64,000 nt of DNA from positions 14,521 through 78,520 of the forward strand of contig CAYFSA010000001.1 of the NCBI GenBank assembly GCA_964345605.1, given 5' to 3'. This DNA comes from an uncultured Ectothiorhodospiraceae bacterium. Its GTDB lineage: Bacteria > Pseudomonadota > Gammaproteobacteria > CAYFSA01. The notes beneath the pieces are model-generated. The model did not search any database. It saw nothing but the letters and a program-made list of their open reading frames with translations, and was not told where the DNA came from. The position numbers and the translations under genes were made by a program. Below are positions 4,233 through 34,806 of this stretch, piece after piece. How positions within the stretch are numbered: position 1 is the first letter of the stretch; each line of letters opens with the position of its first letter.

Positions 4233-4422
4233 AAGCTTGGGCCTGACTCAAATGCTGAAAAACGGACATGGCGTGCCGCCTGGTGCAGCACGGCTCAGGT
4301 ATCGATCAAACGCCGCAGTATAACCCTCGAGGCCATACTGCGGAACCAGATGAACCGATAACACTAGACAAAAACCAGCCACCTGTCACCGGCGCTTATG
4401 CCATAATGCTGGATAAGCTTGT

Positions 4423-5301: not shown

Positions 5302-5346
5302 TGCCCTTCGTTTTCTGATACCGCTTCAGCAAAAAAGGCCGATTTC

Positions 5347-7227: not shown

Positions 7228-7314
7228 CTTGTCCAAGCAGCCGCCGCAGGCCCTCAAAGCAGCTATTTTCACCCTGATTAATCGCCACTTCATTTAGGAT
7301 GCGGAATGACAGGG

Positions 7315-8049
7315 CTATAAAGCCCGCACCAGCCGGCGGACTTCGGACGCATGGCGGCGGCTGACCTCAAGCTGCTCGACGATATCCTTTATCTGCACAC
7401 GCAGCCGACCATCGTTGCCGCGCTTGAGACCTGCCAGTGAGGCTATGGTTACCAGGGCATTGCGATGAATACGAATAAACGTCCCCGGGAAATTGGCCTC
7501 GAGCGTTTTCAAGGAATCCTCGATCAGAACTTCCCCGTCTTTATAGCGAACCGTGACGTATTTCTGCTCGGCCTGGCAGTAATACACTTGCTCGATCGGA
7601 ATCAAACGCAAAGCGCCGCGCTCGGTCGCACAAATATACGTATGCGCCTTGCTCGGCGACTGCTCGGCCCGCAAGCCTTCGAGCTGGGCCAGATTCGGGC
7701 GGCTAGCGCTGGTCAGGGCCTGTTCCAGTTCCTGCTGGCGTACGGGCTTGACCAGGTAGCCCATGGCATGCAGGGCAAAGGCCTCCAAGGCATGATCCGA
7801 ATAGGCGGTCACAAAGATGACCGCCGGTGCCGGCCGTAAGCGCAGGAAATATTGGGCGGCCTCCATGCCGTCCATGCCGGGCATGCGGATGTCGAGCAGG
7901 ACGATTTCAGGACGCTCGACTTGGCAATGCTCCAACGCTTCGACCCCATTGGTCGCCAAGGCACAAACCTCAAAGCCCTCGATCGCTTCCACCATGCTTG
8001 CCAGACGCTCCAGCGCTGGCTGCTCGTCATCGACCACAAGCACCTTCAT
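7315..8049 (-). CDS. LytTR-family two-component response regulator (AlgR-like)
   Basis: Receiver domain MKVLVVDDEQPALERL...DIRMPGMDGME plus a C-terminal LytTR DNA-binding domain. Paired with the downstream histidine kinase. The argH-kinase-regulator arrangement mirrors argH-fimS-algR of Pseudomonas. Confidence 0.85.
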   Translation of the reverse strand: MKVLVVDDEQPALERLASMVEAIEGFEVCALATNGVEALEHCQVERPEIVLLDIRMPGMDGMEAAQYFLRLRPAPAVIFVTAYSDHALEAFALHAMGYLVKPVRQQELEQALTSASRPNLAQLEGLRAEQSPSKAHTYICATERGALRLIPIEQVYYCQAEQKYVTVRYKDGEVLIEDSLKTLEANFPGTFIRIHRNALVTIASLAGLKRGNDGRLRVQIKDIVEQLEVSRRHASEVRRLVRAL

Positions 8050-8120: not shown

Positions 8121-9230
8121 TCAGGTGCCGGTATTACGCCAGCGAATCGTGAATTCAACTCGATAATGAGCCTGGGTTTGCGAAATTTTCAGGGGATCGG
8201 TATCGCCGTAAGCAAGCGTCAAGCGTTCCCGTACATTATCCTGGGCAATCTGGCTGCCACGCTTACTTCCCAAACGCTTTGCACCAGGCAATGGGTTGGT
8301 GACGGCAATCGCCACACCGGCGTTTTCGCACCTCACCTCCACGGTAACAGTGCCCCCCCCAGTCGCCGGCTCGATGCCATGGTAAATAGCATTCTCGACC
8401 AACGGTTGCAAAATCAACGCCGGCACCTCGATCGCCAGGGGTACCTCCGGATCCTCACGCCAATCCACGGTCAACCGCTGACCCAGGCGCAATGACTCGA
8501 TGTTCAAATAGCGCCGGGTTATGTCCAGTTCATTGGCCAATTTGACGTGATCTTGCTGCGCCAGCGCCACGCGAAACAGATCCGCCAAATCTTCCACCGC
8601 CTGCTCGGCCCACTGTGGTGAGCTGCGCGTCAAGCTCGCGATGGTATTCATCGAATTGAACAAAAAATGCGGCCGAATCCGGGCCTGGAGGGCCTCAATA
8701 CGCATCTGGGCCGCGGTTTTGAGCGGTTGCCGGGCGCGCTGATAGACCGCGAGCAAATAGCCGGCAAGCAAGGCTACCAACATGGCGACGGCCAGATTAC
8801 GTAGGACGAAACCTAGTTCATTGGCCACCGCCCCGGCAGTGCTTGGCCCAAACGGCCAGGCCAGCACAATGACCGAGCCCAGGATCGTTACCGCAGCTAC
8901 ACAAACCAGGCCGACCGCATAGGTATAACCGGGACGCAGCTGGTTGACATAGCCTCGCAGCAGACATAGCAAACCAACCACGATCCAGGTTACCACTTGC
9001 ACGAAAGCCGAGACGGCCAGCCCGTGTGCCAGCCAGTTCGCCGTTGTCACACCGGGCGCCAAGACCAGCAGCAAGGCCAGGACTTCAGCTAACAGCAGGA
9101 TCATCAGCCCATGTCGCCACCGGCAAGCAATGGCATGCCAACGCTTGTCCGAACGCTCATCTTTAACCATGAGGTCTACCTTGCTCCCTTGCTTGCCCGA
9201 TTCCGGAAACGCACAGACAAAATGATACAC
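8121..9230 (-). CDS. LytS/AlgZ(FimS)-type sensor histidine kinase (non-canonical His_kinase/HATPase)
   Basis: Multiple N-terminal TM helices, then a LytS-type His-kinase region ([15 protein letters not shown]) and an ATPase region. Start uncertain (9230 or 9170). Divergent from argH. Confidence 0.75.
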
Positions 9231-9266
9231 TGGCGATTTGCCAGTCGTGTACAGGTTTCAATAGTC

Positions 9267-10664
9267 ATGAGCAACCAAGCCAACAAATCCTGGGGAGGGC
9301 GTTTCGCCGAGCCCACCGACGCCTTTGTGGAAGCCTTTACCGCCTCTATCGGCTTCGATCATCGCCTGGCCCAGCTAGACTTGGCCGGCTCCCGCGCCCA
9401 CGCCCGGATGCTGATGCAAACGGGTATTCTGGGCCAGGCCGACGGCGAGCTCATTCTGACAGGCCTCGATGCCCTGGAACAGGACTTAGCCGCCGGCAAG
9501 CTCAGCTGGTCGGTGGCCGCGGAAGATATTCACATGAATCTGGAAGCCCAGCTCATCGACCGCATCGGCGAAGCGGGCAAACGGCTGCACACGGCACGCT
9601 CGCGCAATGACCAAGTCGCCACCGACCTGCGCCTGTATACCCGCGAGGCCATCGATCATCTGGAAACCGAGCTGCGCCGCCTGCAAACCGGCCTTTTGGA
9701 TCTCGCCGATGCTGAGGCCGAGACTATCATGCCGGGCTTTACCCATTTGCAGGCCGCCCAACCCGTCACCTTCGGGCATCACATGCTGGCCTGGCTGGAA
9801 ATGCTCGAGCGTGACCGTGAACGCCTGCTGGATGCCCGCAAACGGGTCAACACCCTACCCCTCGGCGCGGCCGCCCTGGCCGGCACCGGCTTTCCCATCG
9901 ACCGCCAGTACACCACTGAGCTATTAGGTTTCGAGCGGCCGGCGGCGAATTCCCTGGATGCCGTCAGCGATCGCGATTTCGCCCTAGAAGTCAATGCCGC
10001 GGGCGCCATCCTAATGGTGCATTTATCGCGTTTCGCCGAGGAATTGATTCTCTGGAATGCCACCCCATTCGGCTTCGTGCAATTACCCGATCGCTTCTGC
10101 ACCGGGTCTTCCATCATGCCGCAAAAGAAAAACCCCGATGTCCCGGAACTGATCCGTGGCAAAGCCGGCCGGGTCTTCGGCCATCTCATGGGCCTGCTGA
10201 CTCTGATGAAGGCCCAGCCGCTGGCCTATAACAAGGACAATCAGGAGGACAAGGAACCCCTGTTCGATACCCTCGACACCCTCACCGACAGCCTGCGGGC
10301 TTTTGCCGATCTTATCCCGCACTTGCGCGTCGACCGCGAGCGCATGCACGCAGCCGCCCGCGCTGGTTATGCCACGGCCACCGACCTGGCCGATTATCTG
10401 GTACGCAAAGGCATGGCCTTTCGCGATGCCCATGCCGCCGTCGGCCAGGCCGTGCAGCACGGCCTGGCGCAGGGCCTGGACCTCGCCGAGATGGACTTAC
10501 AAACCTTGCAAGGCTTCGCGGCCTGTATCGAAGCCGATGTCTATGACATATTAACGGTGGAGGGCTCGGTGGCCAGCCGTGACCATGTCGGCGGCACCGC
10601 GCCGGCGCAAGTGCGCCGGCAAATTGAGTATCATCGCAAGCGCCTGGCAAGGTTGGCGCAATGA
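9267..10664 (+). CDS. argH: argininosuccinate lyase
   Basis: [28 protein letters not shown]... and fumarate-lyase signatures. Start reassigned to the ATG at 9267; the ORF-track Met is 156 nt upstream and overlaps the kinase gene. Confidence 0.95.
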
Positions 10665-10700
10665 CTTGGCATTGCCATGCTTATTGGGTGATTCTAACGC

Positions 10701-10768
10701 AATGGGCGGGCTGAAGCCCGCCCTACTAGTTGGCGACCGACCGGTCGACTCTACTCACTCTCGCATCG
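10701..10768. repeat. hairpin-containing repeat A (GGGCGGGCTGAAGCCCGCCC-TACTAG-TGG... second palindrome ...CTACTC.CTCTCG); imperfect direct copy of repeat B at 14199..14273
   Basis: A 14-mer, gcccgccctactag, is identical to one at 14211..14224. Flanking similarity extends the match to ~70 bp. Contains a perfect 8-bp GC stem with a 4-nt loop. Confidence 0.6.
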
Positions 10769-11044
10769 CCTCAGCCAGGCCTTGACTTGTTCCGGGTCTA
10801 ATCGTTTAAGCAGCTCCTCCGGATCAAGCCCCTTCAGCCGCTCCTCCGCCGGCAGTTCATCCAAAAACGCCTGGCGCTCCTCCGGGGTCATGTTGTGCAG
10901 TAGCTGTTGATGCGTCTCGCGGATGAAGTCTGCCATCGTGTACGACATCGCCGGGTCCTCCAGGTGATAAGTCAGGTAAAGCTGCTGCAGCAATGCCCGG
11001 GAGCCCGGCCGGTGCCATTGGCGGATGCGTGCTTCGCGGTTCAT
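10751..11044 (-). CDS. hypothetical small protein (97 aa); last codons (..CESE*) are encoded by repeat A
   Basis: ORF with repeated LxPEE/LDPE motifs reminiscent of C-terminal regions of transposase-associated (Rpn/DUF4351-like) proteins. No firm family assignment. Confidence 0.35.
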   Translation of the reverse strand: MNREARIRQWHRPGSRALLQQLYLTYHLEDPAMSYTMADFIRETHQQLLHNMTPEERQAFLDELPAEERLKGLDPEELLKRLDPEQVKAWLRRCESE

Positions 11045-11240
11045 GGACGCTGTTGCCCCGGTTTGGCCTACAGGGTTTGCTCATCATCCCTGGCTGTATC
11101 GACAAGTTATGCCGCGGCTCCCCGGGCGCGGCGCACCCCGTCTGCCTTACCTCGCGACGCAGGATAACGCAAAGCTAACGTGCTGGGTGGAGCGAAGCGG
11201 AACCCAGTCGCGTTGAGCGCCATGTTAGAGTCACCGATGT

Positions 11241-11468
11241 TCATAGAAGCTCCAAAAATCCTTCAACGGAAAGGCGCGCCTGTTTCAGGATATGCGAAAG
11301 CGTAGATCGCTTAATCGGGCGGTGCGCCGGCACCGTAAGTTTCAGCACCTCGTCGCGAGTATGCTCATGAAGCCGGATATGGCTGCCACGTTGCCTAACC
11401 ACTACCCATCCATCTCGCTTCAAAGCAGTGATGACCTGCTCGTAGGCGAGGCTTGGAACCTTGCTCAT
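11241..11468 (-). CDS. hicA: HicA-family toxin (YcfA-like mRNA interferase)
   Basis: 75 aa. ...VVRQRGSHIRLHEHTR...LKLTVPAHRPIKRSTLSHILKQA is a typical HicA signature. A 4-nt overlap with upstream hicB. Confidence 0.8.
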   Translation of the reverse strand: MSKVPSLAYEQVITALKRDGWVVVRQRGSHIRLHEHTRDEVLKLTVPAHRPIKRSTLSHILKQARLSVEGFLELL

Positions 11469-11680
11469 ACAGCCACTTCTGTAATCTCGGAATCCGGCCC
11501 ATAAGCCGCGTCGTCTTCGACGGTCTCCAAGTACAGTTCGACGGCCTCCCTAATATTTTGTAGAGCCTCGTCTTTGCTATCTCCTTCGCTAATGCATCCC
11601 GGTAGGCTGGGAACGTACGCGGTGTACCCACCTTCCTCACTGGGCTCAAGAACAACTGCTAGCTTCATATCAATCTCCAC
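11465..11680 (-). CDS. hicB: HicB-family antitoxin (UPF0150)
   Basis: 71 aa. KLAVVLEPSEEGGYTAYVPSLPGCISEGDSKDEALQNIREAVELYLE is a typical HicB N-domain. Confidence 0.75.
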   Translation of the reverse strand: MEIDMKLAVVLEPSEEGGYTAYVPSLPGCISEGDSKDEALQNIREAVELYLETVEDDAAYGPDSEITEVAV

Positions 11681-11859
11681 AATTCTCTAATCTCAAAGAC
11701 TCTAACATCTAAGCATTTATCTGCCGTGCGCAGCATGGCGGATAAATGTCTGTTGAACTGAGCCGCCCCGACTGGGGGCACCCGCCGGGTGGTCTTCTCT
11801 TCAAGGGGGAAAGTATCCGGCGCCCCTGGGGCGCCTCGCACCGGACGGCGCGAGCCAGG

Positions 11860-12477
11860 TCATATCTGAGCCTTCCTTGAGCAGCCACTACCGGTCTCCT
11901 TGAAGCAGGCCGTGAGTTCGTTCCCCGGATACTGCACGAGCTCTACTTGAATTCCAACCGATGGCCCGCAAGTGACCGCGCCTCGCTCTGCGGGCGGTCT
12001 GCACACGTTCCGCCAATCGCTTCCAGCTACGGCGGCCGTTGTCAATGGCCAGGATACGGCCATTGTGGATGGCGCTGCGGTGCGTATAGCGCGAGAGGTA
12101 ACGCCCTGGCACAGCGGGCAGTGGCGATCCCGGCAACTGTAATACCAGGTTTGTTCCTTGTGACAGTGACCGCAGTGGAGCACCTGACCGCCCATCGCCT
12201 CGGTCCGACAGGACAGCAAGTGGCTGCTCACCTGCAAATACAAAAAGCGAATCCCGTTCAGATGAAGTCGACAACTGGTTGGAGACAACCCACGGCCCAG
12301 GACGAGATACCGAAAATACGCCTCCAGCTCTTCTACACTCAGATCATCCGGGGAACGGCCGTAGTGGCGGGCCAGTCGCTCCACCGCATGCAGGTAGCTG
12401 CCATGGGTACGGGGGGCAAAACCACGAAGCCGCATCGCCTCGATCATGGACTGCCGTAGCGGGCTCATCGTCGTCAC
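11860..12477 (-). pseudogene. remnant of a mobile element: phage-integrase N-terminal SAM-like domain fused in frame to the zinc-binding N-terminus of an IS91-family transposase; catalytic parts absent
   Basis: Residues 1-85 (EELEAYFRYLV...SCRLHLNGIRFLY) look like an integrase SAM-like domain. HCGHCHKEQTWYYSCRDRHCPLCQG matches the IS91-type transposase Zn-ribbon. The rest of the ORF is low-complexity read-through, and no HUH/tyrosine catalytic region follows. Confidence 0.55.
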
Positions 12478-12714
12478 TCCTCTGGTGAACGGCCACCATT
12501 GGCCTTATCCAGAGTCTCGACGATGGGAAGCGGAATGCAGGGTAATCGAAGCCAAATAAGCGAGCTACCGCGAAGCGGTTTAGTTCAACGCCGCTCAGCA
12601 CGCGCGGCTACGGAATGGAGGCGAAGCCGCAATGTAGTAGGCGTCGCCGTGCCTGGCCTTGTTAGGGCCTTGGAATCGGGATAGCATAATTGCATCGCCA
12701 CTCGCGGAGGCACC

Positions 12715-12951
12715 ATGACTACCGAAACATTAGAGCACCTACGCTCTCAGATTTCGACTCTCTCCGAGTCGGAACGCGCAGCGTTGGCTCGCGAACTCAT
12801 CATGAGCCTGGACGGCCCCCGTGACGACTCGGTCGAGCAAGCCTGGAACGATGAAATTGTTCGCCGTGTATCCAAGGTCAAAAGCGGAAAGGCCACGCTG
12901 CTCAGCCGCGAAGAATTCCGATCAAAGATGCGAGCGAGGTTAGGCCAGTAA
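12715..12951 (+). CDS. addiction-module antitoxin (ParD/RelB-like putative addiction module component)
   Basis: 78-aa protein. Its stop abuts the start of a ParE-like toxin gene 3 nt downstream. Confidence 0.65.
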   Translation: MTTETLEHLRSQISTLSESERAALARELIMSLDGPRDDSVEQAWNDEIVRRVSKVKSGKATLLSREEFRSKMRARLGQ

Positions 12952-12953
12952 CA

Positions 12954-13268
12954 GTGCGAACGGTAAGGATACTGGAAGAAGCCTCGCAGGAAGCGATAGA
13001 GGCAGCAGCATGGTACGAATTTGAGCAGGCTGGACTTGGAGCTGAGTTTTTCGCTGCCGTTGATGCCGCCATCGACGTTATTGAAGAAAACTTCATCCCC
13101 TTGTCACCTCTCCCCGATGAAGCTCGCGACACCGGTGCAAAACGCCTTATTCTGGAGCGCTTCCCCTACGATATAGTTGCGATTGAGTTGCCGGAAGAAG
13201 CGGTCGTAATCGCCATTGCCCACCACTCTCGTAAGCCCGGCTATTGGCTGGGACGTGGTAACTCCTAG
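12954..13268 (+). CDS. ParE/RelE-family toxin (plasmid stabilisation system protein)
   Basis: 104 aa. ...AIDVIEENFIPLSP...RLILERFPYDIVAIE...VVIAIAHHSRKPGYW matches the ParE/RelE fold consensus. Confidence 0.7.
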   Translation: MRTVRILEEASQEAIEAAAWYEFEQAGLGAEFFAAVDAAIDVIEENFIPLSPLPDEARDTGAKRLILERFPYDIVAIELPEEAVVIAIAHHSRKPGYWLGRGNS

Positions 13269-13405
13269 CCAGCATAAACGGCGCCCGACTAGGGCGTCCG
13301 GTGGAGGCCCTTCGGGCCGGAACGAATTTAATACATTTGTTAAGCATTGATTTTCCAGAGCACGCCCTAAGTACAATAACAAACGCTAGAAAGGACAACC
13401 GCTCA

Positions 13406-13579
13406 ATGAAAAATTTTTTAGAAGACCTAGCTGGATTGAGCGTTTCGAAGCTGTACCAGCACTTCAGGATGCGCGACCACCCCTACGGCCTACAGGATTC
13501 TCTGTCTACGCTTAACCTGTCTTGTTCGCACCTCCGTGCTCCGCCACAGGTCCAAGACTCGATACGTGTAGGTGGCTAA
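13406..13579 (+). CDS. small hypothetical ORF (57 aa) in an AT-rich pocket
   Basis: Good SD (AAAGGA) 10 nt upstream of the ATG. Local AT-rich composition unlike the surrounding sequence. No recognisable family. Confidence 0.3.
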   Translation: MKNFLEDLAGLSVSKLYQHFRMRDHPYGLQDSLSTLNLSCSHLRAPPQVQDSIRVGG

Positions 13580-13690
13580 CCCTTACCCGGCAGGGACTTT
13601 CACCCCGCAAGATACGCCGAGCTTTGCTCGGCGCGATAACGCCAAGCTCAGTCGAGCGAGACCGAAACCGGCTTCGGCTGGAGCAGTTCG

Positions 13691-14160
13691 TTAGAGAGCT
13701 TTCCTCATCGCCAAGTCACAACGGTCTGAGAGATGGCTCGGCGTGAACTCCATGAACCCGTACTTCCTGTAGAGCGCCAAGGCTTCTTTAAGACATGAAT
13801 TCGTCTCAAGCGTCATCTCCACAAACCCTAAACTCTTTGCGACAGCGATGGCATCGTCCATCATCGTCTTCCCCAAGCCTCGCCCTTTGAGTTCGGGTAG
13901 CAAGTACATCTTGCGCAATTCACAGGAATGACTTGTCGTTGGGAATATCCCGCAAGATCCGACAACCCGGCCGTCGCATTCGAGAATCCTGAACGCTCCG
14001 CCGTTCGACAATTACGATGCTTGGATGTTACGGATGTCTGCATCGGTTTCTTCAGGATTGGTGCTTAGCCCATATCCGGCAAGTACCCGGCAAGAGCCTC
14101 CTTCAGAATCCAGAACACGTCCTCTTCATCGTCTGGGCGGTAGTCGCGAAGTTGACACAT
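13691..14160 (-). pseudogene. GNAT-family N-acetyltransferase disrupted by frameshifts
   Basis: The C-terminal 106-aa ORF carries GNAT motif A (RGLGKTMMDDAI) and the YRKYGF motif. A GNAT-like N-terminus (MCQLRDYRPDDEEDVFWILKEAL) is encoded from 14160 in another frame and is followed by stops. Confidence 0.55.
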
Positions 14161-14195
14161 CGTGAATCTGCTCTCTAACCAGTCAATAAAAATAA

Positions 14196-14230
14196 TAAAG
14201 GCGGACTAAAGCCCGCCCTACTAGATGGCC
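14196..14230 (-). terminator. rho-independent terminator of the dynamin-like GTPase operon
   Basis: On the minus strand a GC hairpin (GGGCGGGCTTTAGTCCGCC) is followed by a T-rich tract (TTTATTATTTTTATT). Confidence 0.5.
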
Positions 14231-14273
14231 AGCTGTGGGTCGATTGAAATCGACCCTACTCCTCGCTCTCGGT
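14199..14273. repeat. hairpin-containing repeat B (GGCGGACTAAAGCCCGCC-CTACTAG-ATGG...GGGTCGATTGAAATCGACCC-TACTCCTCGCTCTCGG); direct copy of repeat A
   Basis: See repeat A. Overlaps the last codons (..TESEE*) of the dynamin-like gene. On the minus strand the first hairpin is followed by TTTATTATTTTTATT, so it doubles as a terminator. Confidence 0.6.
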
Positions 14274-15731
14274 TTGAGCACCAGCCAAGGTGCTCGGGTG
14301 GCTCGTGCCGGAAGGATTGGTAAACTGGTCGTTCAGCCGCTGAACATAGCGATCGGCGGTATCTCGCACAGATTTCAGGATGAGGCGTGAGCGCTTGCTC
14401 CAGCCCCAGGGATTGCGTCGCCACATGGGCCGCCAGAATTCGGTATTCTTGCGGAATGCAGCCACCAGATTGCCGGGCAATTTATCATCCTGCAGGGTAG
14501 CCGCCACTTTGTCCGCCATCAAGTTGCGGAATAGAAAATGAATACCGGCCAGCACCACGACCAGGGCGACCCCTAGGCCGATAGCAAGATTCGGCTGCGA
14601 GCCCAAGCCTTGCACGAAGCCGGCGATCTCCCCAAGGCCCCAGCCATAGTTGATAGCAACCCCACCAAAGACGAGCAAGATCGCCAAGACAGTCAGCCCG
14701 TCACCCGTCAGAGTAAGCTGCCGCCAACGCCGTAAGGCTTGCTGCAAACGCGGCACAACGGCAAATTCAATCTGCTCGCCGATATGGCTTAGCGTACCGA
14801 CGATACGGTAGACACGCTGCACGCCGACATCAGCAATGCGACTGTAAATCAGCTCCATGTCGTGATCACGTTTGCTGCGGAAACGCTCCCGCAGGCTCGC
14901 ATCTTCGATCGGCACCGCTGCCGTATCGCTATAAACGGCATAAAAGCGGCCGGCACTCAAACCATGCTTAGCCAGAGCCCGATGCCAGGCAGCCAGGACA
15001 TCCTCGGCGTTATCCTCGCGGGCAGTCGTGTCGATCTGGTTGAGTACAAACTGGAATTTGCCGAAATCGCCACGGTGATAGACGTTGGCGACCAGATGCT
15101 TAAGGGTATCCTGCATGGCGCCGGGCTCGGGACGGCGGGCATCGAACAGGACCAGCACCAGGTCCGATAAGTCCATGATATAGTCGGTAATACGCAGGGT
15201 CGAATCGCGCTGCTCATCAGCATCAAAGCCCGGCGAGTCGATAATGATCTTGCCACGCAAATGCTCGGCCCTGCAGGTCTTCATCTGGGTGTAGGTGTCG
15301 ACCCGCATGCCCTCACCCGGTGCGACATGCTCAATTTCGTCGGCAATTTGATAAAACGGAAAGCGCGGATCAGAATCCAGGGCCCGGCCAGGCAATTCGT
15401 GCACCTGATCATCCTGGCTAAAACAAATAACAGTGAATTTGTCATCCACCGCTTGGTTACCCGTATCCTGCAGTTTCTTGCCGAGGAAATCATTGATGAA
15501 CGTGGATTTGCCTGCCGAATAAGTACCTAGGACGGTAATGAGCGGCCACCAGGAAATTTTCGTGGCAAAGGACTCGTCAGTTTCCAACAGGCCGAGCTTG
15601 TAGGCAACCCGATCAAGCTCACGAAATTCTTTGGCTGCCTCGACCAGGATGGGATTTTCCAATTGCAGATGCTCGGTCAGGGCATCGAGTCTGAGCTGTA
15701 ACACGCTATTGGCTTGTGACATGCTATTCAC
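14256..15731 (-). CDS. dynamin-family large GTPase with C-terminal membrane hairpin (bacterial dynamin-like protein, LeoB-like)
   Basis: G1 GTYSAGKST, G3 DSPG and G4 NQID motifs. Two hydrophobic helices near residues 340-400. Its start overlaps the stop of the upstream gene by 4 nt. Confidence 0.75.
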   Translation of the reverse strand: MNSMSQANSVLQLRLDALTEHLQLENPILVEAAKEFRELDRVAYKLGLLETDESFATKISWWPLITVLGTYSAGKSTFINDFLGKKLQDTGNQAVDDKFTVICFSQDDQVHELPGRALDSDPRFPFYQIADEIEHVAPGEGMRVDTYTQMKTCRAEHLRGKIIIDSPGFDADEQRDSTLRITDYIMDLSDLVLVLFDARRPEPGAMQDTLKHLVANVYHRGDFGKFQFVLNQIDTTAREDNAEDVLAAWHRALAKHGLSAGRFYAVYSDTAAVPIEDASLRERFRSKRDHDMELIYSRIADVGVQRVYRIVGTLSHIGEQIEFAVVPRLQQALRRWRQLTLTGDGLTVLAILLVFGGVAINYGWGLGEIAGFVQGLGSQPNLAIGLGVALVVVLAGIHFLFRNLMADKVAATLQDDKLPGNLVAAFRKNTEFWRPMWRRNPWGWSKRSRLILKSVRDTADRYVQRLNDQFTNPSGTSHPSTLAGAQTESEE

Positions 15732-16528
15732 CTTGAGTTCGTTATAGTTGGCGAGACACCGTTGCGCGGCTGCGCCGGCCAGGAATCCGCTTGAGGTTGC
15801 TGATTGGCGTTTTGTTCAGCTGCTTGATAGGCCTGTTGCAAAGCCGACATCACCGGCGAAATTGGCACCACCCCAGCTGCCTCGAGCGCGCGTACCAATT
15901 CCCCCGCTTCCCAGCCACGGCCCTGAGCGACCAACCGCGTGGCCGCTTCGGCGTAGGTCTCGGCGGCGTTGTCATAGGCCCCCATAAGGGTATAAAAATT
16001 GCCAAGTTCGCCGACCACATCCGGATCATGCGCCAAGCGCTGCGCCAAGGTTACATAAGCACGCTCCGCGCATTGATGCCGTCCCTGCCAAACGCAAGTC
16101 CGAGCCTGGCGCCACAAACGCCGGATAGCCTCATTTTTTTGGCTAGGCCGTGGCGTCTGTGGGCGCTCAGTGTACGCGGCTGTTCCCATTGGCTGAGACG
16201 TCCGTTGCTGCTCCTGGCGAATCGCCTCTTGCTCGCGCCATTGCTGCCAAGCTTCGCGGCTTGCAGCCTCAGCCGCGGCTTGCGGGGGCTCGGGCTGCCC
16301 TGCTTGCGTCCCGGCGGGCCGCTGCAGCGATGCATCCGAGCCTGGCTCGGACGCCGGCACCTCTGCTTCGTCGCCTTCCACGGCGCGAATCTGATGCAAA
16401 TTGCGCGGGGCCTGGGCTTGAACCGGGTCGGCAAGCGCGAGCAGACCAAACGCCATAACCCCTACACAAACTGCGATACTGTTAGACTGCCCTGAAGTCA
16501 CAGGAAAGTTGTAAGCAATGGATCGCAT
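15728..16528 (-). CDS. secreted protein with Q/A/E-rich coiled-coil region and C-terminal TPR-like helical domain; co-operonic partner of the dynamin-like GTPase
   Basis: Start chosen at the ATG (16528) that gives a signal peptide, MRSIAY...IAVCVGVMAFGLLALADPVQA. The track's longer ORF begins with GTG at 16600. Translationally coupled to the GTPase gene. Confidence 0.5.
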   Translation of the reverse strand: MRSIAYNFPVTSGQSNSIAVCVGVMAFGLLALADPVQAQAPRNLHQIRAVEGDEAEVPASEPGSDASLQRPAGTQAGQPEPPQAAAEAASREAWQQWREQEAIRQEQQRTSQPMGTAAYTERPQTPRPSQKNEAIRRLWRQARTCVWQGRHQCAERAYVTLAQRLAHDPDVVGELGNFYTLMGAYDNAAETYAEAATRLVAQGRGWEAGELVRALEAAGVVPISPVMSALQQAYQAAEQNANQQPQADSWPAQPRNGVSPTITNSR

Positions 16529-16753
16529 CGGGCGAGCTAAGCGCCGCCTCACGCCGCTCAAGCTAAGCCCATGCCCCCATTGCAAGCCGAACCGTCGCAC
16601 AGCGAGTGTGCTCGGCCAGCGTCAACAGTGGCAAGGCCGCCTGAATGGACTGCACTGTGCATCCAACATGGCAAACAATGCATCATTAGACATCAATCAC
16701 TTGGCCCAACAAAAAATAGCCATTTAAGCCGCTACTACCGCACAACCGACAGT

Positions 16754-16909
16754 TTATTGTGCATGCCCATGCACCGCCTCGGCTTCGCTATGCGCGGGCT
16801 TGTTGCCGAGCCAGCTATCAAGATTATCGCGCGCGACCCAGCCATACACCGCAGCGCTCACAATCAGGACGAGCACCAAATGGCGCAATATCCAATAAAC
16901 AACAGGCAT
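16754..16909 (-). CDS. possible small single-TM protein (51 aa)
   Basis: MPVVYWILRHLVLVLIVSAAVYGWV... with a GGGGG SD about 8 nt upstream. Lies between the ParA gene and the TPR/dynamin genes on the same strand. Weak call. Confidence 0.25.
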   Translation of the reverse strand: MPVVYWILRHLVLVLIVSAAVYGWVARDNLDSWLGNKPAHSEAEAVHGHAQ

Positions 16910-16938
16910 TGAGATACCCCCGTATAGTCGAACTTTTG

Positions 16939-17571
16939 TTATTTGACGAATAGATGCGAATATAAAATCATGCTCAAGCGCATGACCTCGCTATGCGCTG
17001 GACCCTGCGGCTCCAACTCAAAGGCAGCCAGCCCTTCGCTGAAGGCCTCGCGATAGACCGGCCGGTCACACCAGATAGCATCAATGACGTGGACGCTTTT
17101 AAGCTGTTGCAGCGCGGCGCGCGCCTCGGCATTTTCCGGAGCAGCCGGATCAGGATTGGCGCGATTGATAAAGCACAGGTGCTCTGGGGCGCGACTGCCG
17201 AGATTGGCTTCGCGGACAATACTGATAAACCGCTGTAACGACCAAATATCAGCCTGGCTCGGCGGCACCGGCGTCACAACCCGATCGGCCATATTTAAAG
17301 CCAAGCGCAATGCTGGCATATCCGAAGTACCGACATCCACCAAGACTTCCCTGGCGGTTGTTCTGCTCAATTTAACCGCTTGGCGCTCGACTGCCATGGC
17401 AGGCTGGTGGCCTTCCTCCCGGCGGATATCGATCAAATCAGCGAGCGTGGCTTGGGGATCCAGATCGAATAATTGCAGCGGCTGCTGCTGAGCTGCCAGA
17501 TAGGCTGCGATATTGAAAGCTACGGTGCTTTTGCCCGTACCCCCTTTAAGGTTACCGAATACGGTAATCAT
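16939..17571 (-). CDS. orphan ParA/MinD-family P-loop ATPase (no parB nearby)
   Basis: Deviant Walker A, MITVFGNLKGGTGKST. About 210 aa with no N-terminal extension. Start set at the ATG at 17571. Confidence 0.85.
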   Translation of the reverse strand: MITVFGNLKGGTGKSTVAFNIAAYLAAQQQPLQLFDLDPQATLADLIDIRREEGHQPAMAVERQAVKLSRTTAREVLVDVGTSDMPALRLALNMADRVVTPVPPSQADIWSLQRFISIVREANLGSRAPEHLCFINRANPDPAAPENAEARAALQQLKSVHVIDAIWCDRPVYREAFSEGLAAFELEPQGPAHSEVMRLSMILYSHLFVK

Positions 17572-17643
17572 GCAAACAATTCGATTTCTGCGCTCCCCCT
17601 TTGACAAACCGCACATCCCTGTGCAGTGGCAGATTTCAGGCGA

Positions 17644-18042
17644 TTAATAGTCCGCGTTACCGCCGCTGGCTTGGCCGCCACCCTGCTGCGGGGCTTGACC
17701 GGCATAAGGCGCGGGCGCCCCGCCATACGGAGCACCCCGATGAGGTACACCGTAACCGTAGGGCGCATAGCCATAGCCATACGGGCCATAGCCATAGTGA
17801 TCGTAATAATCACCATAACCACGGCCCCAACCGCGACCACTCATATTGAAGTCGAAATCACCAAACATATCACCTAAGCCGTCAGCCCAGCTGTTACTAC
17901 CATAGCCGGGATAGCCGCCCCAGGGGCCACCATAATAGCCAGGATAGCCGCCCCAGGGACCACCCCCCCAGTAGGCGTTTGCCGCACCGGCCGACAGACC
18001 AAGGATTACAGCCAGAGTAATTGCTTTGGTCAGGTTTGTCAT
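17644..18042 (-). CDS. secreted Gly/Tyr/Trp/Pro-rich low-complexity protein (sulfur-globule-protein-like / glycine-rich structural protein)
   Basis: Signal peptide [23 protein letters not shown]. Mature part is rich in [10 protein letters not shown] and [15 protein letters not shown] repeats. SD GGAGG lies upstream of the ATG at 18042. Confidence 0.6.
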
Positions 18043-18144
18043 TGCATCCTCCACTTAAGGAAAATACCCCCGCGGTTAATGACGGCGCATGTGTCGAGGG
18101 CAATCCACACACGCCCGGCAGAACCTCTCAAGCCCATTATGCTA

Positions 18145-21100
18145 TTAATGCTCCAGATCGGCTTTCAAGCGGATACCGCGTTTACCTGATTTCGGTTGGG
18201 TCGCTTGCGAGGACTCGGCGTGAGCCTCGGATGCCGCCGTTTGAGCCGACTTATCTACATAATTGCTCGCTTGCTCAGCTTCTTGTTCAATCGTCGTTGC
18301 CTGCGCAACAGGTGCCGTTGGCGACTTCTCGGCCGCGGCATCTGACGGCTGCGACCAAGCCGATTCCGGCAGCGAGGCACTATCCGGCATGGGTGCCTGG
18401 CCGGTTCGGTGGGTTGCGCTCACGCCACTGCTGCTCGCTTTAGCCGGCTCGGATTGCACAGCCAAAGTTTGCTCGCCCTGGGACAGCGGAGACGGCTGGG
18501 CTGCAGTGCTGGCGGCCTCACCGCTTGCCCCAGACGCCGGCATGGTCTCAGCCGGCTCAATTTGCTTGTCACGCGCGCGGCTCAAGGCCCATACCTGCTT
18601 TACGCCCCAACGCAGCAAATAAAATATACCCTGGGCTATCAGGCCGATATAGATCGCCACAGTCTTGGCCGTGGCGAGTGCGGCGCTGCGTGAGGATTTG
18701 CGTGTTTCACGCCGCGCTGCCGAATCGCCAGGCCCGGAACCGGCCCCATCATCCGGGCCGCTGGGGCCACTCGGACCCGGACCACTGGGCCCATTACCCC
18801 GGCCCTTGCTCAGTAACGGATCGTTCTCGCAGGGCGTCGGCGCCATCTGACTTGCCGGGCCGGCCAAACAGAAAGCATGGCGTACCGAGACGCAGCCTAA
18901 GGGAATAACCAGCAATGTCAACACGGTCGAAACGATGACACCGAACATCAGGGACACTGCCATCCCCTGGAAGATTGGATCGGCCAAGATCACCGCCGAG
19001 CCGCCGACCAGCGCCAGCGCGGTGATGATAATGGGGCGTGTACGCGCCTTGCAGGCCTGGATCACCGCCTCGGACACCGGTTGGCCATGATCCACTTCGT
19101 GCTTGGCAAAATCCACCAATAAGATAGAGTTACGCACAATAATACCTGCCAGGGCGATGAAGCCGATCATTGACGTGGCGGTGAACTCGGCATTAAACAG
19201 CCAGTGCCCCGGAATAATCCCGATCAAAGTAAGCGGAATCGGCGCCATCACCACCATCGGCAGGATAAAGTTACCGAACTGTGCCACCACCAGAATGTAA
19301 ATCAGCACTAAGGCCCCGGCGAAGGCAATGCCCATATCCCGGAAGGTCTCGTAAGTGACCGTCCATTCGCCACCCCATTCGAAGGCAACATTGGCGCTGG
19401 TATAGTCACTGCTCGGCGGTCCCATCCAGCCGGTTTTGACCGGCTCGCCCGTGGGTGACTCATAGTCTTCGAGCATCTTTTCGACTTCAAGCATGCCATA
19501 AACCGGGGCGGCCAGGCGTCCGGCGGTTTCCGCCGTGACATACTCCAGCGGCCGCAGATCCTTGTGATAAATGACCGGATCCTGTGGGCGCGGTTTAAAA
19601 TAGCCCAATTCCGCCAAGGGGACGGTATCGCCCCGCGCTCGCCCGCCAGCGGTTTGGCCTCCACCATTGCTCACCTGGGTCGCAACCGGCAGCTGCCCGA
19701 TGCGCGAAAACTCATGGCGTATCGATAGCGGCACTTGCAGGACAATCTCGACCGGATCGACCATGCGGCTTTCGAATTTGACATCACCGAGCTCGTAGCC
19801 TCCCATAGCCATCGCCAAGGTCTCGTTGATATCGGCCACACTCACCCCGATCCGCGACGCCTTCTCACGCTGCACCACAAAGTCATAGACCTGGTATTCC
19901 GCTTGCAGGAAATTGTCCTCGTCCGTCAAGTACTGCGCCTTCTCGAACATCTGCGTCAAATCTTCGGCCACGGCAACGAGCGCCTCACGCGGGCCGTACA
20001 CTTCGGCCACCACCGATTGCAGCACGGGCGGCCCGGGCGGCATTTCGACCACTTCGATCCGGGCTCCGGCGGCCGTGGCAATGGGGGTTAAGCGCTCGCG
20101 CACTTCCACCGCGATCTGGTGACTGGTGCGATCAGGCCGGTCGTGCTTGTCGATCAACTGCACTTGGATATCACCCTGCCAGGGATTCTGACGCAGATAG
20201 TAATGGCGCACCAAACCGTTGAAATTATACGGCGAGGCGGTACCGGCATAGGACTGCAGACTGACGACTTCCGGGATTTCCTGGACTTCTTCGGCCAAGT
20301 CCTGAATCACATTGGCCGTGCGCGGCAGCGCGGTACCCTCAGGCATGTTCAGCATCACCTGGAATTCCGGCTTGTTATCCAACGGCAGCATCTTGACCCG
20401 CACATCGGTCGTATAAAATAGCGATACCGAGGCAAAAAAGGCCACGATGACCGCCAGCAAAAACAGGCTGCCTTTCCAGCGGCTTTTGAGCATCGGCGTA
20501 ATCGAGAAGCGGTACAAGCGCTCGTACATCTCGGCCGACCGATGCTCCTGCGAGGCCATCCGGCCAAGTTTGCGCAGACTCGGTTTGAGCAGCATCGCCA
20601 ACCACGGTGTGAACACGAAGGCGGCAAACAGGGAGAAGGCCATGGCCACCGAGCCTAAGGCGGGAATGGGCATCATGTAGGGGCCCATCATGCCGCTGAC
20701 CATCGCCATCGGCAGCAGGGCCGCAATGACGGTGCCGGTCGCCAGGATAGTCGGATTACCGACCTCATCAACCGCCGCCACTGCCGTGGGGGAATCGATC
20801 TCGCTCTTAATCAGCCAGCGTCGGTAGATATTCTCGACCACCACGATAGCATCGTCGACCAGGATGCCGATGGAGAATATCAAGGCGAATAGACTCACCC
20901 GGTCGATGGTAAAGCCCAACACCCAGGCCGAGAACACGGCGACCAGGATAACGATGGGGATAACGACAAGCACCACCGTGGCCGCACGCCAGCCCAGGAA
21001 GTACCAGACCAGGGCGGTCACGATGAAGGTCGCGATCAGCAGCTTCTTGAGCAGCCCGTTAACCTTTTGCTTAGCGGTCTCACCATAGTTGCGGGTTACA

Positions 21101-22200: not shown

Positions 22201-22229
22201 GGAGATTGCGTTCCAGCATGGACCAAGCG

Positions 22230-23357: not shown

Positions 23358-23648
23358 ATTGATGGTCTCGGGCTTAGGGCATAACCGTAACTGAAAACGC
23401 CGATCCGAAATGAGATACATCGCCTGACCATCCCTGCCGTCGCGGCACTGATCGATGACAGCAGATTGATCGTTGGCAAATATGGGACGTGATCATATCG
23501 AATCCAAGCCGCCAGGCATACCTCTGGTGAAGAATTCCTGCGAATAATACCCGAGCGCCGCGCGCCACGCACCCGCTTGGCTCCGAGACAAGCCTGCGTT
23601 AGCCTTGCGCAATACTGGCGCTAGCGCGCCGCCTCCCGGACCCAAGCC

Positions 23649-34419: not shown

Positions 34420-34806
34420 GGCAGTATCCGCCCCAAAAAAAAGACGCTGGCTGCGCTCATGGGAACACCTTCTGGGCTAAGCGCATGGGGACCCCTGTCG
34501 TTTGCTAATGCCTGGTCTGCCAGCTTACCCAGCAAACGGGTCAGGGACAAGCGGAAGACACTGCAAATTACCGACGCAGCGCCGGGTAGGGGCAGCTTCA
34601 ACCGACCGCCTCGCCTGCATGAAAGCTCGGCGAGGCGGGTTAAAACCCGCCCTACAGCGCCCTTGCCGGGCAGCGCATGCGCTTAACTTAATGGCAGTGC
34701 CCTAGAGGGCAGGGGTGCGAAAACTTATGAAACAATTGATAAGAATGCCATGGCCATGATCATAGGGTTGCCGATCCGGATTCAGTATACTGATTGAGAA
34801 TTCTTA

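Follow-up and report, generated by a model that had tools for sequence, protein, structure and literature searches.

Clusters of attC sites lacking an integron integrase (CALINs) were defined, and origins for them proposed, by Cury et al. 2016 (PMC4889954); they average about 5 sites, and 95 % have no recognisable intI pseudogene adjoining them (PMC4889954). A CALIN with content similar to that of the locus examined here has been described in Halorhodospira halochloris (PMC7923331). Insertion of cassettes by IntI at non-att genomic GWT sites has also been reported (bioRxiv 10.1101/2022.09.11.507474), and GTAG REPs are known to give TAG stop codons to flanking ORFs (PMC3733652).

The locus lies between argH and a dynamin operon in a 64-kb stretch of a 167-kb contig; this stretch, all of which was analysed, is referred to as the window. 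A preliminary description had interpreted it as a decayed integrative islet bounded by two direct repeats, A and B. We consider, with a probability of roughly 0.8, that window positions 14178..11168, read on the minus strand, are instead a short, degenerating integron gene cassette array with no integrase nearby, i.e. a CALIN, as judged with a hand-written structural scan and our own covariance model (R1) rather than IntegronFinder. The attC sites c2, c4 and c1 are all minus-strand sites, and a search of the 64 kb detected no integrase, hence the fit to a CALIN. The 3.4-kb stretch would thus be a decaying cassette array with REP terminator hairpins beside it, an element of a kind already known rather than a novel integrative island. 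The evidence supports a horizontal origin and a mosaic, decaying state for the DNA that separates argH from the dynamin operon, and to this extent the preliminary description stands; the mechanism and boundaries it gave do not.

Limits of the variable DNA

The host flanks are argH (argininosuccinate lyase; 9267..10664, plus strand; Pfam Lyase_1/ASL_C2), by which a terminator scan found a terminator-like hairpin at 10658-10675, and a gene for a dynamin-family GTPase (14256..15731, minus strand; Pfam Dynamin_N; 488 aa from the annotated start), for which homologues and a conserved upstream cluster were found. The strain variants used for comparison are metagenome assemblies. One allele, L087/L088, is 96.2 % identical to the window over 11.5 kb, a span that takes in the whole of repeat B as well as the dynamin gene. 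Though A and B had been taken to bound the element, this homology runs past the T-run of repeat B, ends right after GTTAGA (window 14174), and returns at GCG|TTATCC (window 11170), about 400 nt before repeat A. Between these points L087/L088 carry two different cassettes, one with a KAP NTPase gene and one with a glyoxalase-like gene; a canonical attC follows each (L087 13849-13920 and 14594-14689). The difference between this allele and the window appears to be cassette replacement between fixed G|TT points.

The array starts at the proximal crossover J0 (G|TTAGAG; 14173..14179, minus strand), its GTT lying 20 nt past the REP-a/terminator hairpin of the dynamin operon. There the window reads ...TTGACTGGTTAGAG|AGCAG and L087 reads ...TTGACTGGTTAGAT|TCCC, homology stopping at 14174. 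The array ends at a G|TTATCC before a gene of a 286-aa family that abuts argH. The variable DNA extends from the G|TT at 14179 to the G|TT at 11168, inside the repeats, and this comparison of alleles contradicts A and B as element boundaries; the true junctions are the G|TT crossovers of integron attC sites. Repeat B is wholly kept in L087-L090, whose downstream cassettes differ, and repeat A beside argH is kept in L092, L093 and L095, irrespective of the sequence further out. The relatives compared included no empty-site allele, and in relatives with a dynamin identity of ≤71 % argH is not beside the dynamin gene.

The 97-aa ORF next to argH (10751..11044, minus strand), previously listed as a stand-alone hypothetical, is an in-frame internal deletion of a 286-aa gene from an uncharacterised family (662 homologues, none named). 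About 180 codons have been lost at a TGGCRCCGGC microhomology near 11008-11017; a full-length copy is at L092 11487-12347. This gene adjoins argH in every variant compared, with an invariant A-argH junction. The endings TESEE* (dynamin) and CESE* (97-aa ORF) do overlap the repeats, as can be seen in the sequence, though CESE* is native to the 286-aa gene beside argH and is not a displaced dynamin tail. In L092 the 286-aa gene is joined to an unrelated PALP gene with a breakpoint at window 11108 that is not a GTT; a paralogue or a join made in assembly might account for this.

Cassettes and attC sites

A unit was taken to begin with the TT of an attC R' box (G|TTRRRY) and to close with the G of the following R' box, which gives four in minus-strand order. 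Pfam searches bore out the gene calls made previously for HicA, HicB, the 205-aa fusion, the GNAT fragment and the dynamin gene. The first unit is a GNAT acetyltransferase pseudogene (13691..14165, minus strand; Pfam Acetyltransf_1/7/10 on a 106-aa piece) in which three-frame translation revealed one frameshift, as had been noted, and one in-frame TAA. Its attC, c2 (13634..13696, minus strand; R'' CTCTAAC ... extrahelical C ... R' G|TTATCG), was found by a relaxed scan and by folding, and is like an attC-plus-intron junction in L222.

The second unit consists of a group II intron stub, AT-rich filler, an inverted toxin-antitoxin pair and c4. The stub, about 190 nt of the intron 5' end (13445..13634, minus strand), starts right after the c2 R' box (GTTATC|GCGCCG...), scores 50.4 bits against Rfam RF02005 (gathering score 49), and has lost the reverse transcriptase ORF and 3' domains. 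L222 5783-5999 matches it at 85 % identity, and there an attC is followed, at the same point, by a full intron that includes its reverse transcriptase. The small AT-rich ORF reported earlier (92 aa, plus strand) is present but overlaps this stub on the opposite strand and is probably a spurious call. No recognisable attC lies between the stub and the toxin gene (13270-13445). The toxin-antitoxin pair (12715..13268, plus strand) is inverted relative to the array; it had been called ParD/ParE-like, and while it is a toxin-antitoxin pair, the 78-aa antitoxin belongs to TIGR02574/Unstab_antitox and not ParD, and the 104-aa toxin is only weakly ParE-like (E=0.014, below the family cut-off). Loci of Marinobacter share 86.9 % nucleotide identity with the segment 12655-13247, and at 90 % identity the antitoxin clusters with proteins of that genus. 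Site c4 (12583..12667, minus strand; R'' CCCTAAC ... R' G|TTGAAC) was assigned to this cassette as a putative attC from the hand-written strict structural scan (7/7 L-box pairs plus the bulge) and from positional homology, as it occupies the same position as the R1 match at L216 9882-9953 in Marinobacter. Its fold is attC-like; R1 did not detect it in the window.

In the third unit, a 205-aa ORF (11860..12477, minus strand; Phage_int_SAM_4 and Zn_Tnp_IS91 by Pfam and NCBIfam) joins the N-terminal SAM-like domain of an integrase to the Zn-ribbon of a transposase, both catalytic domains having gone. An intact counterpart pair, a 301-aa integrase and a 349-aa Y2 transposase, is present at L222 1035-2991 and was compared with the window by blastp and tblastn; the ORF is a deletion fusion derived from an IS91-family element with an accessory tyrosine recombinase. 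Apart from this N-terminal piece of an IS91-associated integrase, with its attached transposase fragment, there is no recombinase relic. The unit ends in site c3 (11698..11758, minus strand; GTTCAAC, a 16-bp imperfect hairpin and R' G|TTAGAG), whose R' crossover was verified by a cassette junction matching L223; the remainder is non-canonical, with a fold lacking R''/R' pairing and no match by R1.

The fourth unit is a HicB-HicA cassette including its attC (11168..11705, minus strand; hicB 11465-11680, hicA 11241-11468; Pfam HicB_lk_antitox and HicA_toxin). It shares 96.3 % identity with L222 and 95.3 % with L223, both unrelated contexts, and the homology (window 11166-11704) opens at G|TTAGAGTC and closes at ...TTTGCG|TT, suggesting that the unit is independently mobile. 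Its attC, c1 (11162..11230, minus strand), was found by the strict structural scan and consists of R'' CTCTAAC, a 5-nt spacer and L'' GCT(C)AACG, whose bracketed C is extrahelical, then L' CGTTAGC, a 5-nt spacer and R' G|TTATCC. Its G|TT is where homology to L088, L222 and L223 stops. Toxin-antitoxin modules, a GNAT gene and a group II intron stub placed directly after an attC R' box in cassette orientation are content typical of cassettes.

Sites c1, c2 and c4 share the architecture R''-5 nt-L''(extrahelical C)...L'-5/6 nt-R' on the minus strand. The strict scan gave four matches in 128 kb (both strands), two of them within the 3.7-kb islet and in the array sense. Fold z-scores of these three sites are unremarkable (-0.5 to -1.3). 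R1 was built from six sites of these same arrays, and its only matches in the window, c1 (86.6 bits) and c2 (59.6 bits), are members of that training set. Outside the training set it matched L087 14594-14689 (24.8 bits), L222 3075-3134 (34.1 bits), L223 5595-5667 (26.4 bits) and two Marinobacter L216 sites (18.9 and 14.6 bits).

When IntI1 was used as a tblastn query against the 64-kb window there was no match at E≤0.01, and integrases in L222 and L223 were detected by the same search; no recognisable intI pseudogene lies beside the array. In L223, an IntI fragment (45 % identity with IntI1 residues 54-150; E=5e-18 against a 2.3-kb sub-region) is encoded on the opposite strand, 5 kb upstream of attC matches that are all on the cassette strand, which is how an integron is laid out. 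Insertion, excision and exchange of the cassettes in the window may be the work of an IntI that is encoded at another locus or has since been lost, with the bottom strands of attC as its folded substrates. The array may have begun with an insertion into a secondary (attG-like) GTT, or a rearrangement may have parted it from its integrase; the toxin-antitoxin cassettes probably stabilise it. From strain differences alone, we infer that cassette activity continues.

Repeats A and B and alternative origins

Each repeat is a doublet of GTAG-headed REP hairpins on the minus strand. Repeat A (10686..10754) lies where the 286-aa-family gene ends (3' side); it comprises REP-b' (10754..10734), which provides the TAG stop, and REP-a (GTAGGGCGGGCTTCAGCCCGCCC; 10726..10704), followed by GTTAGAA at 10698..10692. 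Repeat B (14198..14259) ends the dynamin operon and comprises REP-b (GTAGGGTCGATTTCAATCGACCC; 14259..14237), whose TAG is the dynamin stop codon, and REP-a (GTAGGGCGGGCTTTAGTCCGCC; 14221..14200), which with the T-run that follows reads as a predicted intrinsic terminator of the operon. The identical 14-mer reported in both, GCCCGCCCTACTAG, is indeed present in two and only two places in the window (10716 and 14211); in L092, repeat A reads GCCCGCCCATTGCTAG and lacks it, so the 14-mer is not conserved. A and B are mutual best matches in the window, and the best direct repeat of the region is 44 nt long (10705-10748 vs 14200-14243; 80 % identity, ungapped). However, the claim of about 70 bp at about 70 % identity was overstated. 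The optimal local alignment, with a score reached by 0 of 2000 shuffles, covers 30 nt (27/30), and beyond this REP hairpin the likeness is confined to a short CGAGAGYGAG(GAG)TAGRGTCGA patch at both stop codons; the supposedly shared second palindromes are different sequences.

That the same hairpin occurs elsewhere was correct: related hairpins are found at about 34635 and, four of them, in an array at 36848-37150. The motif GTAGGGCGGG has seven copies at four loci in the window and is present again in L092, and the 22-nt hairpin is in at least 120 unrelated metagenome contigs. Among 80 hairpin loci that were fetched, none resembles the window, and the hairpins are often in inverted pairs. The fallback reading offered in the preliminary description, a REP-like family, is thereby upheld. 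The doublets supply the TAG stops and terminators of the dynamin and 286-aa genes and play no part in array formation.

Site-specific recombination at an att site overlapping the dynamin 3' end, with a ~70-bp duplication making A and B attL and attR and the displaced end terminating the 97-aa ORF, was the origin first proposed for a 3.4-kb islet. It would account for the 27/30 match, the patch at both stop codons, the same orientation of A and B and the integrase-domain remnant inside the region, yet that remnant is from an IS91-type element, the A/B core is a REP hairpin common elsewhere, and L092 has a repeat A without the 14-mer. Given also that homology with the alternative allele runs through B, stops 20 nt past the B hairpin and resumes about 400 nt before A, that a gene linked to argH is the native source of A and its CESE* ending, and that the internal units are delimited by G|TT junctions of their own, we regard this origin as extremely improbable.

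Two further explanations are also improbable. If the interval were a generic hypervariable hotspot, accumulating unrelated mobile DNA (toxin-antitoxin modules, IS elements, introns) that strains exchange by homologous recombination of the flanks, with the attC-like palindromes being incidental terminators and integrons having no role, then breakpoints would not be expected to lie exactly at an R' box G|TT in four independent comparisons (J0, the c1 R' box vs L088, and both HicBA ends vs L222 and L223). Nor does a hotspot explain the attC box, spacer and bulge layout on one strand throughout, or the same HicBA cassette downstream of the IntI fragment in L223. It is nevertheless consistent with the mosaic, decayed content with IS and intron debris, the weak fold z-scores, and an IS-bounded, plasmid-like, toxin-antitoxin-rich segment in L087/L093 at the same locus, whose spacers are not attC-like. 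The REP-a hairpins with GTTAGA might themselves be recombination substrates (pseudo-attC or attG-like), with B recruiting the first cassette, A serving as the attC of the last (the 286-aa gene), and both being functional bounds of the array. GTTAGA does follow both hairpins (20 nt past B, 5 nt past A), J0 is a verified crossover, repeat A in L092 and L093 is an almost perfect 45-nt palindrome closed at the base by AAC...GTT, and the reported GWT insertions offer a precedent. We doubt it because no variant has a breakpoint at the GTTAGAA of A, where the junction with argH never varies, R1 has no match at A or B, the spacing from hairpin to GTT and the sequence at B are unlike attC, and the A palindrome has 45 nt and no extrahelical bases. 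No characterised attC is known to be that short.

Comparison with known systems

The cassette array resembles att-flanked islands at gene 3' ends (tRNA/tmRNA-type) in having foreign DNA by a gene 3' end and short similar sequences on both sides, but it has no functional integrase or known empty site, the repeats are off the variable-DNA boundaries, and the target is not a tRNA gene, there being no tRNA in the window. With sedentary chromosomal integrons, e.g. the Vibrio superintegron, it shares cassette structure, the G|TT crossover, toxin-antitoxin cassettes (some inverted) and strain-variable content, though it has no intI, attI or Pc at its head, only 4-5 units, and heterogeneous attC sites. 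The hairpins beside it are like GTAG REPs and BIME-like clusters (PMC3733652, PMC2817692) in their GTAG head and GC-rich stem-loop, in their position just 3' of ORFs to which they supply the TAG stop, and in forming doublets and a tandem cluster (at 36.8 kb), whereas the doublets here are head-to-tail, an arrangement reported to be uncommon (PMC3733652, PMC2817692).

Like CALINs, the array is small, has no intI or intI pseudogene nearby, and its cassettes are not resistance genes. It differs in starting directly after the REP/terminator of a host operon, in its heavy decay (pseudogene, intron stub, IS remnant), and in that membership was assigned with our own scan and model. Compared with the H. 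halochloris CALIN and soda-lake arrays (PMC7923331), the intron here is a 5' stub where the published introns are 5'-truncated, and an IS91-with-integrase remnant is present, not an IS200/605 element. As in those arrays, the host is of a gammaproteobacterial sulfur-bacterium type and comes from a mat or saline environment, type II toxin-antitoxin systems, HicA/B among them, dominate the cassettes, and fragmentary group II introns lie just downstream of attC in cassette orientation.

Limits of the variable DNA

The 3.4 kb islet between argH and the dynamin operon had been read in the preliminary description as acquired DNA that has since decayed, and this reading holds. It had further been proposed that the islet is an island that duplicated an att site at the 3' end of the dynamin gene, with direct repeats A (10686..10754, near argH) and B (14198..14259, at the dynamin gene 3' end) as its limits. 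A JGI metagenome contig (Ga0153774_1000011) is 99.94 % identical to the window, and the near-identical contigs, all of them from microbial-mat metagenomes, include the islet in every case. A second allele (P0121) was found within the 90 % identity cluster of the dynamin. The P0121 contigs (L087–L090) share 96.2 % identity with the window over 11.5 kb, including the dynamin gene, repeat B and the T-run that follows it, and homology breaks completely past this T-run, at 14174 (window ...TTGACTGGTTAGAG|AGCAG, L087 ...TTGACTGGTTAGAT|TCCC). Beyond the divergence point, L087 carries a gene for a KAP-family NTPase and then a glyoxalase-like gene, each ending in a textbook attC (ATCTAAC...GTTAGGT of 72 nt, and GCCTAAC...GTTATCC of 96 nt with a fold z-score of -4.7). 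In L087 and L088, homology restarts at GCG|TTATCC (window 11170) and reaches into the beginning of the 97 aa ORF that adjoins argH. The variable segment is therefore 14178..11168, with G|TT at both ends and internal to repeats A and B, and the whole cassette set has been exchanged in L087/L088 between J0, the proximal G|TT crossover (14173..14179), and the R' box of attC site c1. The boundaries of the inserted DNA, 14174 and 11170, lie inside the direct repeats rather than at them, and the att-duplication model at the dynamin 3' end fails on this comparison.

An empty site with a single repeat copy was found neither in 80 GTDB loci, nor in the nearest relative (71 % dynamin identity), nor among the strain variants, a set in which close relatives are thinly sampled. 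None of the 80 loci, recovered from GTDB species representatives with the dynamin protein as query and all at ≤56 % identity (Sedimenticola, Thiodiazotropha and other Gammaproteobacteria), has argH or an islet gene beside the dynamin gene, and the 71 % relative likewise differs downstream. The TESEE tail of the dynamin is peculiar to this lineage; the annotated start lies 3 codons downstream of the start of the 491 aa ORF. A tRNA gene as integration target was excluded, there being zero tRNA genes in the window. The cluster to which the dynamin gene belongs (14256–23420; dynamin-like GTPase, ParA/CbiA-like ATPase, an RND pump of 1351 aa and a periplasmic adaptor) is conserved in the 80 loci, from Sedimenticola, Thiodiazotropha and other sulfur-oxidising Gammaproteobacteria, whereas the DNA 3' of the dynamin gene is not. 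A Gly/Tyr/Pro-rich 136 aa ORF (weak Pfam SGP match) contains a 33 nt tandem duplication at 17902–17964.

Flanking repeats and the genes that end in them

Repeats A and B were confirmed: the 64 kb contain exactly two copies of GCCCGCCCTACTAG, at 10716 and 14211, and the best direct repeat of the region pairs 10705–10748 with 14200–14243 (44 nt, 80 %). No shuffle of 2000 matched the A/B alignment score, and A and B are mutually best within the window. Of the approximately 70 bp originally assigned to the repeat, a significant core of 30 nt (27/30 in local alignment, GCCA[A/T]CTAGTAGGGCGGGCTT[C/T]AG[C/T]CCGCC) stands and the remainder is weaker; a second short patch, CGAGAGYGAG(GAG)TAGRGTCGA, coincides with both stop codons, and what had been called the second palindromes of A and B are unlike sequences. 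Read on the minus strand, the sense of both neighbouring genes, A and B are hairpin doublets with GTAG before every hairpin, repeat B being ...GAG GAG TAG-GGTCGATTTCAATCGACCC - 15 nt - GTAGGGCGGGCTTTAGTCCGCC - TTTATTATTTTTATT and repeat A ...AGT GAG TAG-AGTCGACCGGTCGGTCG - 7 nt - GTAGGGCGGGCTTCAGCCCGCCC. In both, the TAG stop of the adjacent gene is part of the GTAG that precedes the first hairpin, and an intrinsic terminator is scored for the second hairpin of B together with the T-run.

The hairpins recur outside A and B. The window has seven copies of GTAGGGCGGG, spread over repeats A and B, 34655 and 36848–37150, four loci in all, and a further copy lies in strain-specific DNA (10 kb) of the variant contig L092. 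A single copy of the hairpin unit REP-a lies at 34633–34655, and the intergenic stretch 36848–37150 is a BIME-like REP cluster of four tandem 77 nt units, each with the two-hairpin module of A and B (GGTCGAAACCGACC, 12–13 nt, GTAGGGCGGGTTTCAACCCGCCC). The 22 nt hairpin GTAGGGCGGGCTTNAGNCCGCC is generic and widespread in other organisms: it was found in at least 120 metagenome contigs, and among the matches listed none of the 80 loci fetched resembles the window, the hairpins in these loci frequently forming inverted pairs. REPs of the GTAG super-family are defined by a GTAG head and a GC-rich palindrome 3' of ORFs, and often contribute the TAG that stops the ORF beside them (PMC3733652). Both units of A and B, REP-a and REP-b, have this head and a short GC-rich palindrome downstream of ORFs. 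Hence, the repeats are REPs, and the fallback in the preliminary description, that they belong to a REP-like family, was the right one. A third gene with its TAG stop inside a GTAG REP head encodes a PALP-domain enzyme (L092, 12411–12440; GTAGGGTCCGCTGTGCGGAC). Unannotated DNA at 17662–17874 of L087, as read by eye, translates to a C-terminal fragment of the IS200/RAYT-like transposase type (...DYVHINPLKHGYV...DWPYSTFHRYV...), and a Y1_Tnp (IS200/RAYT-type) ORF is present in L223, an unrelated contig.

The ending CESE* of the 97 aa ORF had been taken for a duplicated dynamin ending. It is instead native to a 286 aa gene, because this gene together with repeat A adjoins argH in all variants of the ArgH cluster. 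The gene is full length in L092, interrupted by an IS in L093 and present as the 97 aa version in the window and L095; the 97 aa ORF is the product of an in-frame loss of ~180 codons at a TGGCRCCGGC microhomology. The same ending is found in a homologue of 87 % identity, and more distant homologues have other endings. Repeat A of L092, GCAATGGGCGGGCTGAAGCCCGCCCATTGCTAG, forms a perfect 13 bp stem and does not include the 14-mer common to A and B. In L092, PALP and thiamine-biosynthesis genes take the place of cassettes next to the 286 aa gene, and the breakpoint (window 11108) is not a GTT. None of the 662 homologues is named, and many are on contigs of ~1 kb, which hints that the gene may be multi-copy. 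Its identification by look as an Rpn/PD-(D/E)XK-like transposase was dropped, as it falls in no Pfam or NCBIfam family. Elsewhere in the window and in L095, genes for a trypsin-like protease and a 626 aa CAP/PKD-domain protein lie between hemC and a LytTR regulator gene (4348–7322); both are missing from L092–L094, where homology skips from window 4347 to 7323, and the stretch is a second strain-specific indel.

attC sites and gene cassettes

We interpret the islet as a CALIN-type integron cassette array, an attC cluster without integron integrase, with a probability of about 0.8. Three attC sites, c1 (11230..11162), c2 (13696..13634) and c4 (12667..12583), all on the minus strand, share the layout R'' xxxTAAC, 5 nt spacer, L'' with an extrahelical C, L', 5–6 nt spacer, R' GTTxxxx, and these three and both L087 sites have the attC box architecture (R'' RYYYAAC, L'', L', R' GTTRRRY and an extrahelical base, here a C in the top-strand L''). 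A CALIN requires at least two attC <4 kb apart on one strand, and c2, c4 and c1 are so arranged. Sites c1 and c2 were recovered by structural scan, fold and the covariance model R1, of which they are training members, and c4 by structural scan only, R1 giving no match. At c3 (11758..11698, minus strand) the R' crossover was verified and the site is otherwise a plain hairpin, not of attC layout. A requirement of ≥6/7 for R''/R' complementarity misses the real sites, since recombination leaves hybrid R' boxes, and a lower threshold was used. Under strict settings four sites were found in 128 kb (both strands), two of them in the islet in the sense of the array; under relaxed settings 3 of 20 were in the islet, all in one sense. 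A further candidate, c5 (13270–13345), folds as two small hairpins with no R1 match and was rejected, and no recognisable attC is present in 13270–13445.

Six sites, c1 and c2 plus four in L087, L222 and L223, went into R1, a substitute for the curated attC covariance model of IntegronFinder, which is not in Rfam. In the window it finds only its own training sites, c1 and c2. Among sites outside the training set it recovers attC2 of L087 (24.8 bits), 3075–3134 of L222 (34.1 bits), 5595–5667 (26.4 bits) and 6218–6318 (19.7 bits) of L223, and two sites in the Marinobacter locus L216.

Evidence for mobility comes from the HicB-HicA cassette (11705..11168), for which the original assignment was confirmed (PF15919, E=4.8e-12, and PF07927, E=3.4e-16, in ORFs that overlap by 4 nt, a type II HicAB pair). 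Two unrelated contigs, reached via a HicB variant, carry it in other contexts, L222 at 96.3 % identity over window 11166–11704 and L223 at 95.3 % over 11156–11710. Thus one cassette is found in three contexts, and at both ends G|TT limits the homology. At the left junction the window has ...GATG|TTAGAGTCTTTGAG and L223 ...GGTG|TTAGAGTCTTTGAG, with unrelated sequence upstream; at the right junction the window has ...TTTGCG|TTATCC, L222 ...TTTTCG|TTGAGC and L223 ...TTTGCG|TTATGC, with unrelated sequence downstream. As judged from these junctions, the unit is built like an integron gene cassette (TTRRRY, ORFs, R''-L''-L'-G). At a distance of 5 kb upstream, L223 has an IntI fragment on the other strand, which shares 45 % identity with residues 54–150 of IntI1, the LPVVL...LLYGT block included. 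The attC matches in L223 are exclusively on the cassette strand. In this contig, the truncated integrase (4447–4737) heads a cassette array that lies beside nif genes, with the Y1_Tnp ORF and a group II intron RT on the opposite strand (coordinates 4447–4737 and 9206–9676).

There is no local integrase. A tblastn search with IntI1 gave no matches at E≤0.01 in the 64 kb window. This query did pick up the integrases in L222 (E=8e-28) and the IntI fragment in L223. A complete integron would have intI, attI and Pc at its head; here, the dynamin gene and terminator are directly upstream of the first cassette and take the place expected for intI and attI. A site-specific integrative island would encode an integrase or carry one that decayed in place; here, the only survivor is an 80 aa SAM-like N-domain fused to an IS91 Zn-ribbon, and the intact parent is an IS91-type pair. 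L222 carries two copies of this pair (a 301 aa integrase and a 349 aa Zn_Tnp_IS91 + Y2_Tnp transposase), and the 205 aa ORF is a deletion fusion of an IS91-family element with its accessory tyrosine recombinase. The GC content dips mildly (0.50–0.57 versus 0.60–0.65 in argH) and is not diagnostic.

For the remaining contents, Pfam agrees with the earlier calls of a Phage_int_SAM_4 + Zn_Tnp_IS91 fusion in the 205 aa ORF, a GNAT fragment and a dynamin-family gene, and the GNAT gene is indeed broken, by a frameshift and an in-frame stop. The pair called ParD/ParE was misnamed in its antitoxin, which is PF09720/TIGR02574 (Unstab_antitox); the 104 aa toxin is weakly ParE-like (PF05016, E=0.014, 16.4 bits versus a cut-off of 23), short of a ParE assignment. 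Over 594 nt, the toxin-antitoxin segment matches Marinobacter loci at 86.9 % identity. In L216 the toxin-antitoxin pair lies on one strand and both attC sites on the other, one of these sites directly upstream of the antitoxin, the place of c4 in the window, and the cassette is therefore inverted in both organisms. The small AT-rich ORF lies opposite a group II intron fragment that attains the Rfam gathering score. This stub (13634..13445) starts immediately after the c2 R' box (GTTATC|GCGCCG...) and matches, at 85 % identity, the 5' end of a complete RT-bearing intron in L222, which follows an attC at the equivalent point.

Two regions of L222 (1035–2991 and 8540–9829) have an IS91 element with a tyrosine recombinase directly beside attC, one intact and one fused/decayed, and both copies are in an "intron RT - HicB-like - IS91" unit, a pattern that may reflect an IS91 lineage targeting attC sites. 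The same IS4-family IS (450 aa DDE transposase) was found at 15040–16495 of L087 and 12170–13522 of L093, two contigs from one sample, with reciprocal flanks, 286-aa-gene(N)-IS-intron(3') versus intron(5')-IS-286-aa-gene(C). This could be due to a cointegrate-like insertion of a plasmid-like segment or to an assembly join across the IS. The segment encodes ParE, MqsA-like, BrnT, PemK, HigBA-like and DUF29 proteins and an intron RT. The toxin-antitoxin-rich DNA past the IS in L087/L093 was considered as further cassettes; its spacers are not attC-like and it was not used as evidence. The spacers in L093 13523–17430 include no attC sites and carry a recurring motif, TTAGACACCCA / GGGACACCCA, and short AT-rich tandem repeats.

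Mechanism and relation to known systems

The exchanges would have been catalysed by an IntI acting in trans, or since lost, on folded attC bottom strands. Toxin-antitoxin cassettes would stabilise the array, and the cassettes are presumably transcribed from their own promoters, since a terminator precedes the array. Two strains that are 96 % identical in the flanks have no cassette in common between one and the same pair of G|TT points, and one HicBA cassette recurs at 95–96 % identity in two other contexts, an IntI relic being present in one of them. Recent exchange by an integron mechanism within microbial-mat communities is suggested by this, at a locus without its own integrase. Proposed origins of CALINs are insertion at secondary sites, intI loss and rearrangement (PMC4889954), and IntI is reported to insert at genomic GWT sites ("attG") (bioRxiv 10.1101/2022.09.11.507474). 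It is improbable that the REP hairpin and GTTAGA that end the dynamin operon, with the argH-side sibling, served as an attG/pseudo-attC entry site for a trans-acting IntI. Were it so, REP/terminator hairpins could seed integrase-less arrays and perhaps be raw material for attC sites, and the array would be actively swapping cassettes among mat bacteria with no resident integrase.

The locus shows a naturally occurring array whose start lies at a genomic GTT other than attI, and it cautions that direct repeats around accessory DNA may be REPs and not att sites. The intron stub has the same orientation as the cassettes (attC top strand), as has the full L222 copy. In this it is like the group IIB introns reported from halophile CALINs (PMC7923331). 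It does not match the classical group IIC-attC introns, whose target is the bottom strand of the attC and which face against the direction of cassette transcription (PMC3001079). What was presumed to be a new integrative islet is re-assigned to two kinds of element that are already well described, the array to the CALIN type and the flanking repeats to GTAG REP terminators.
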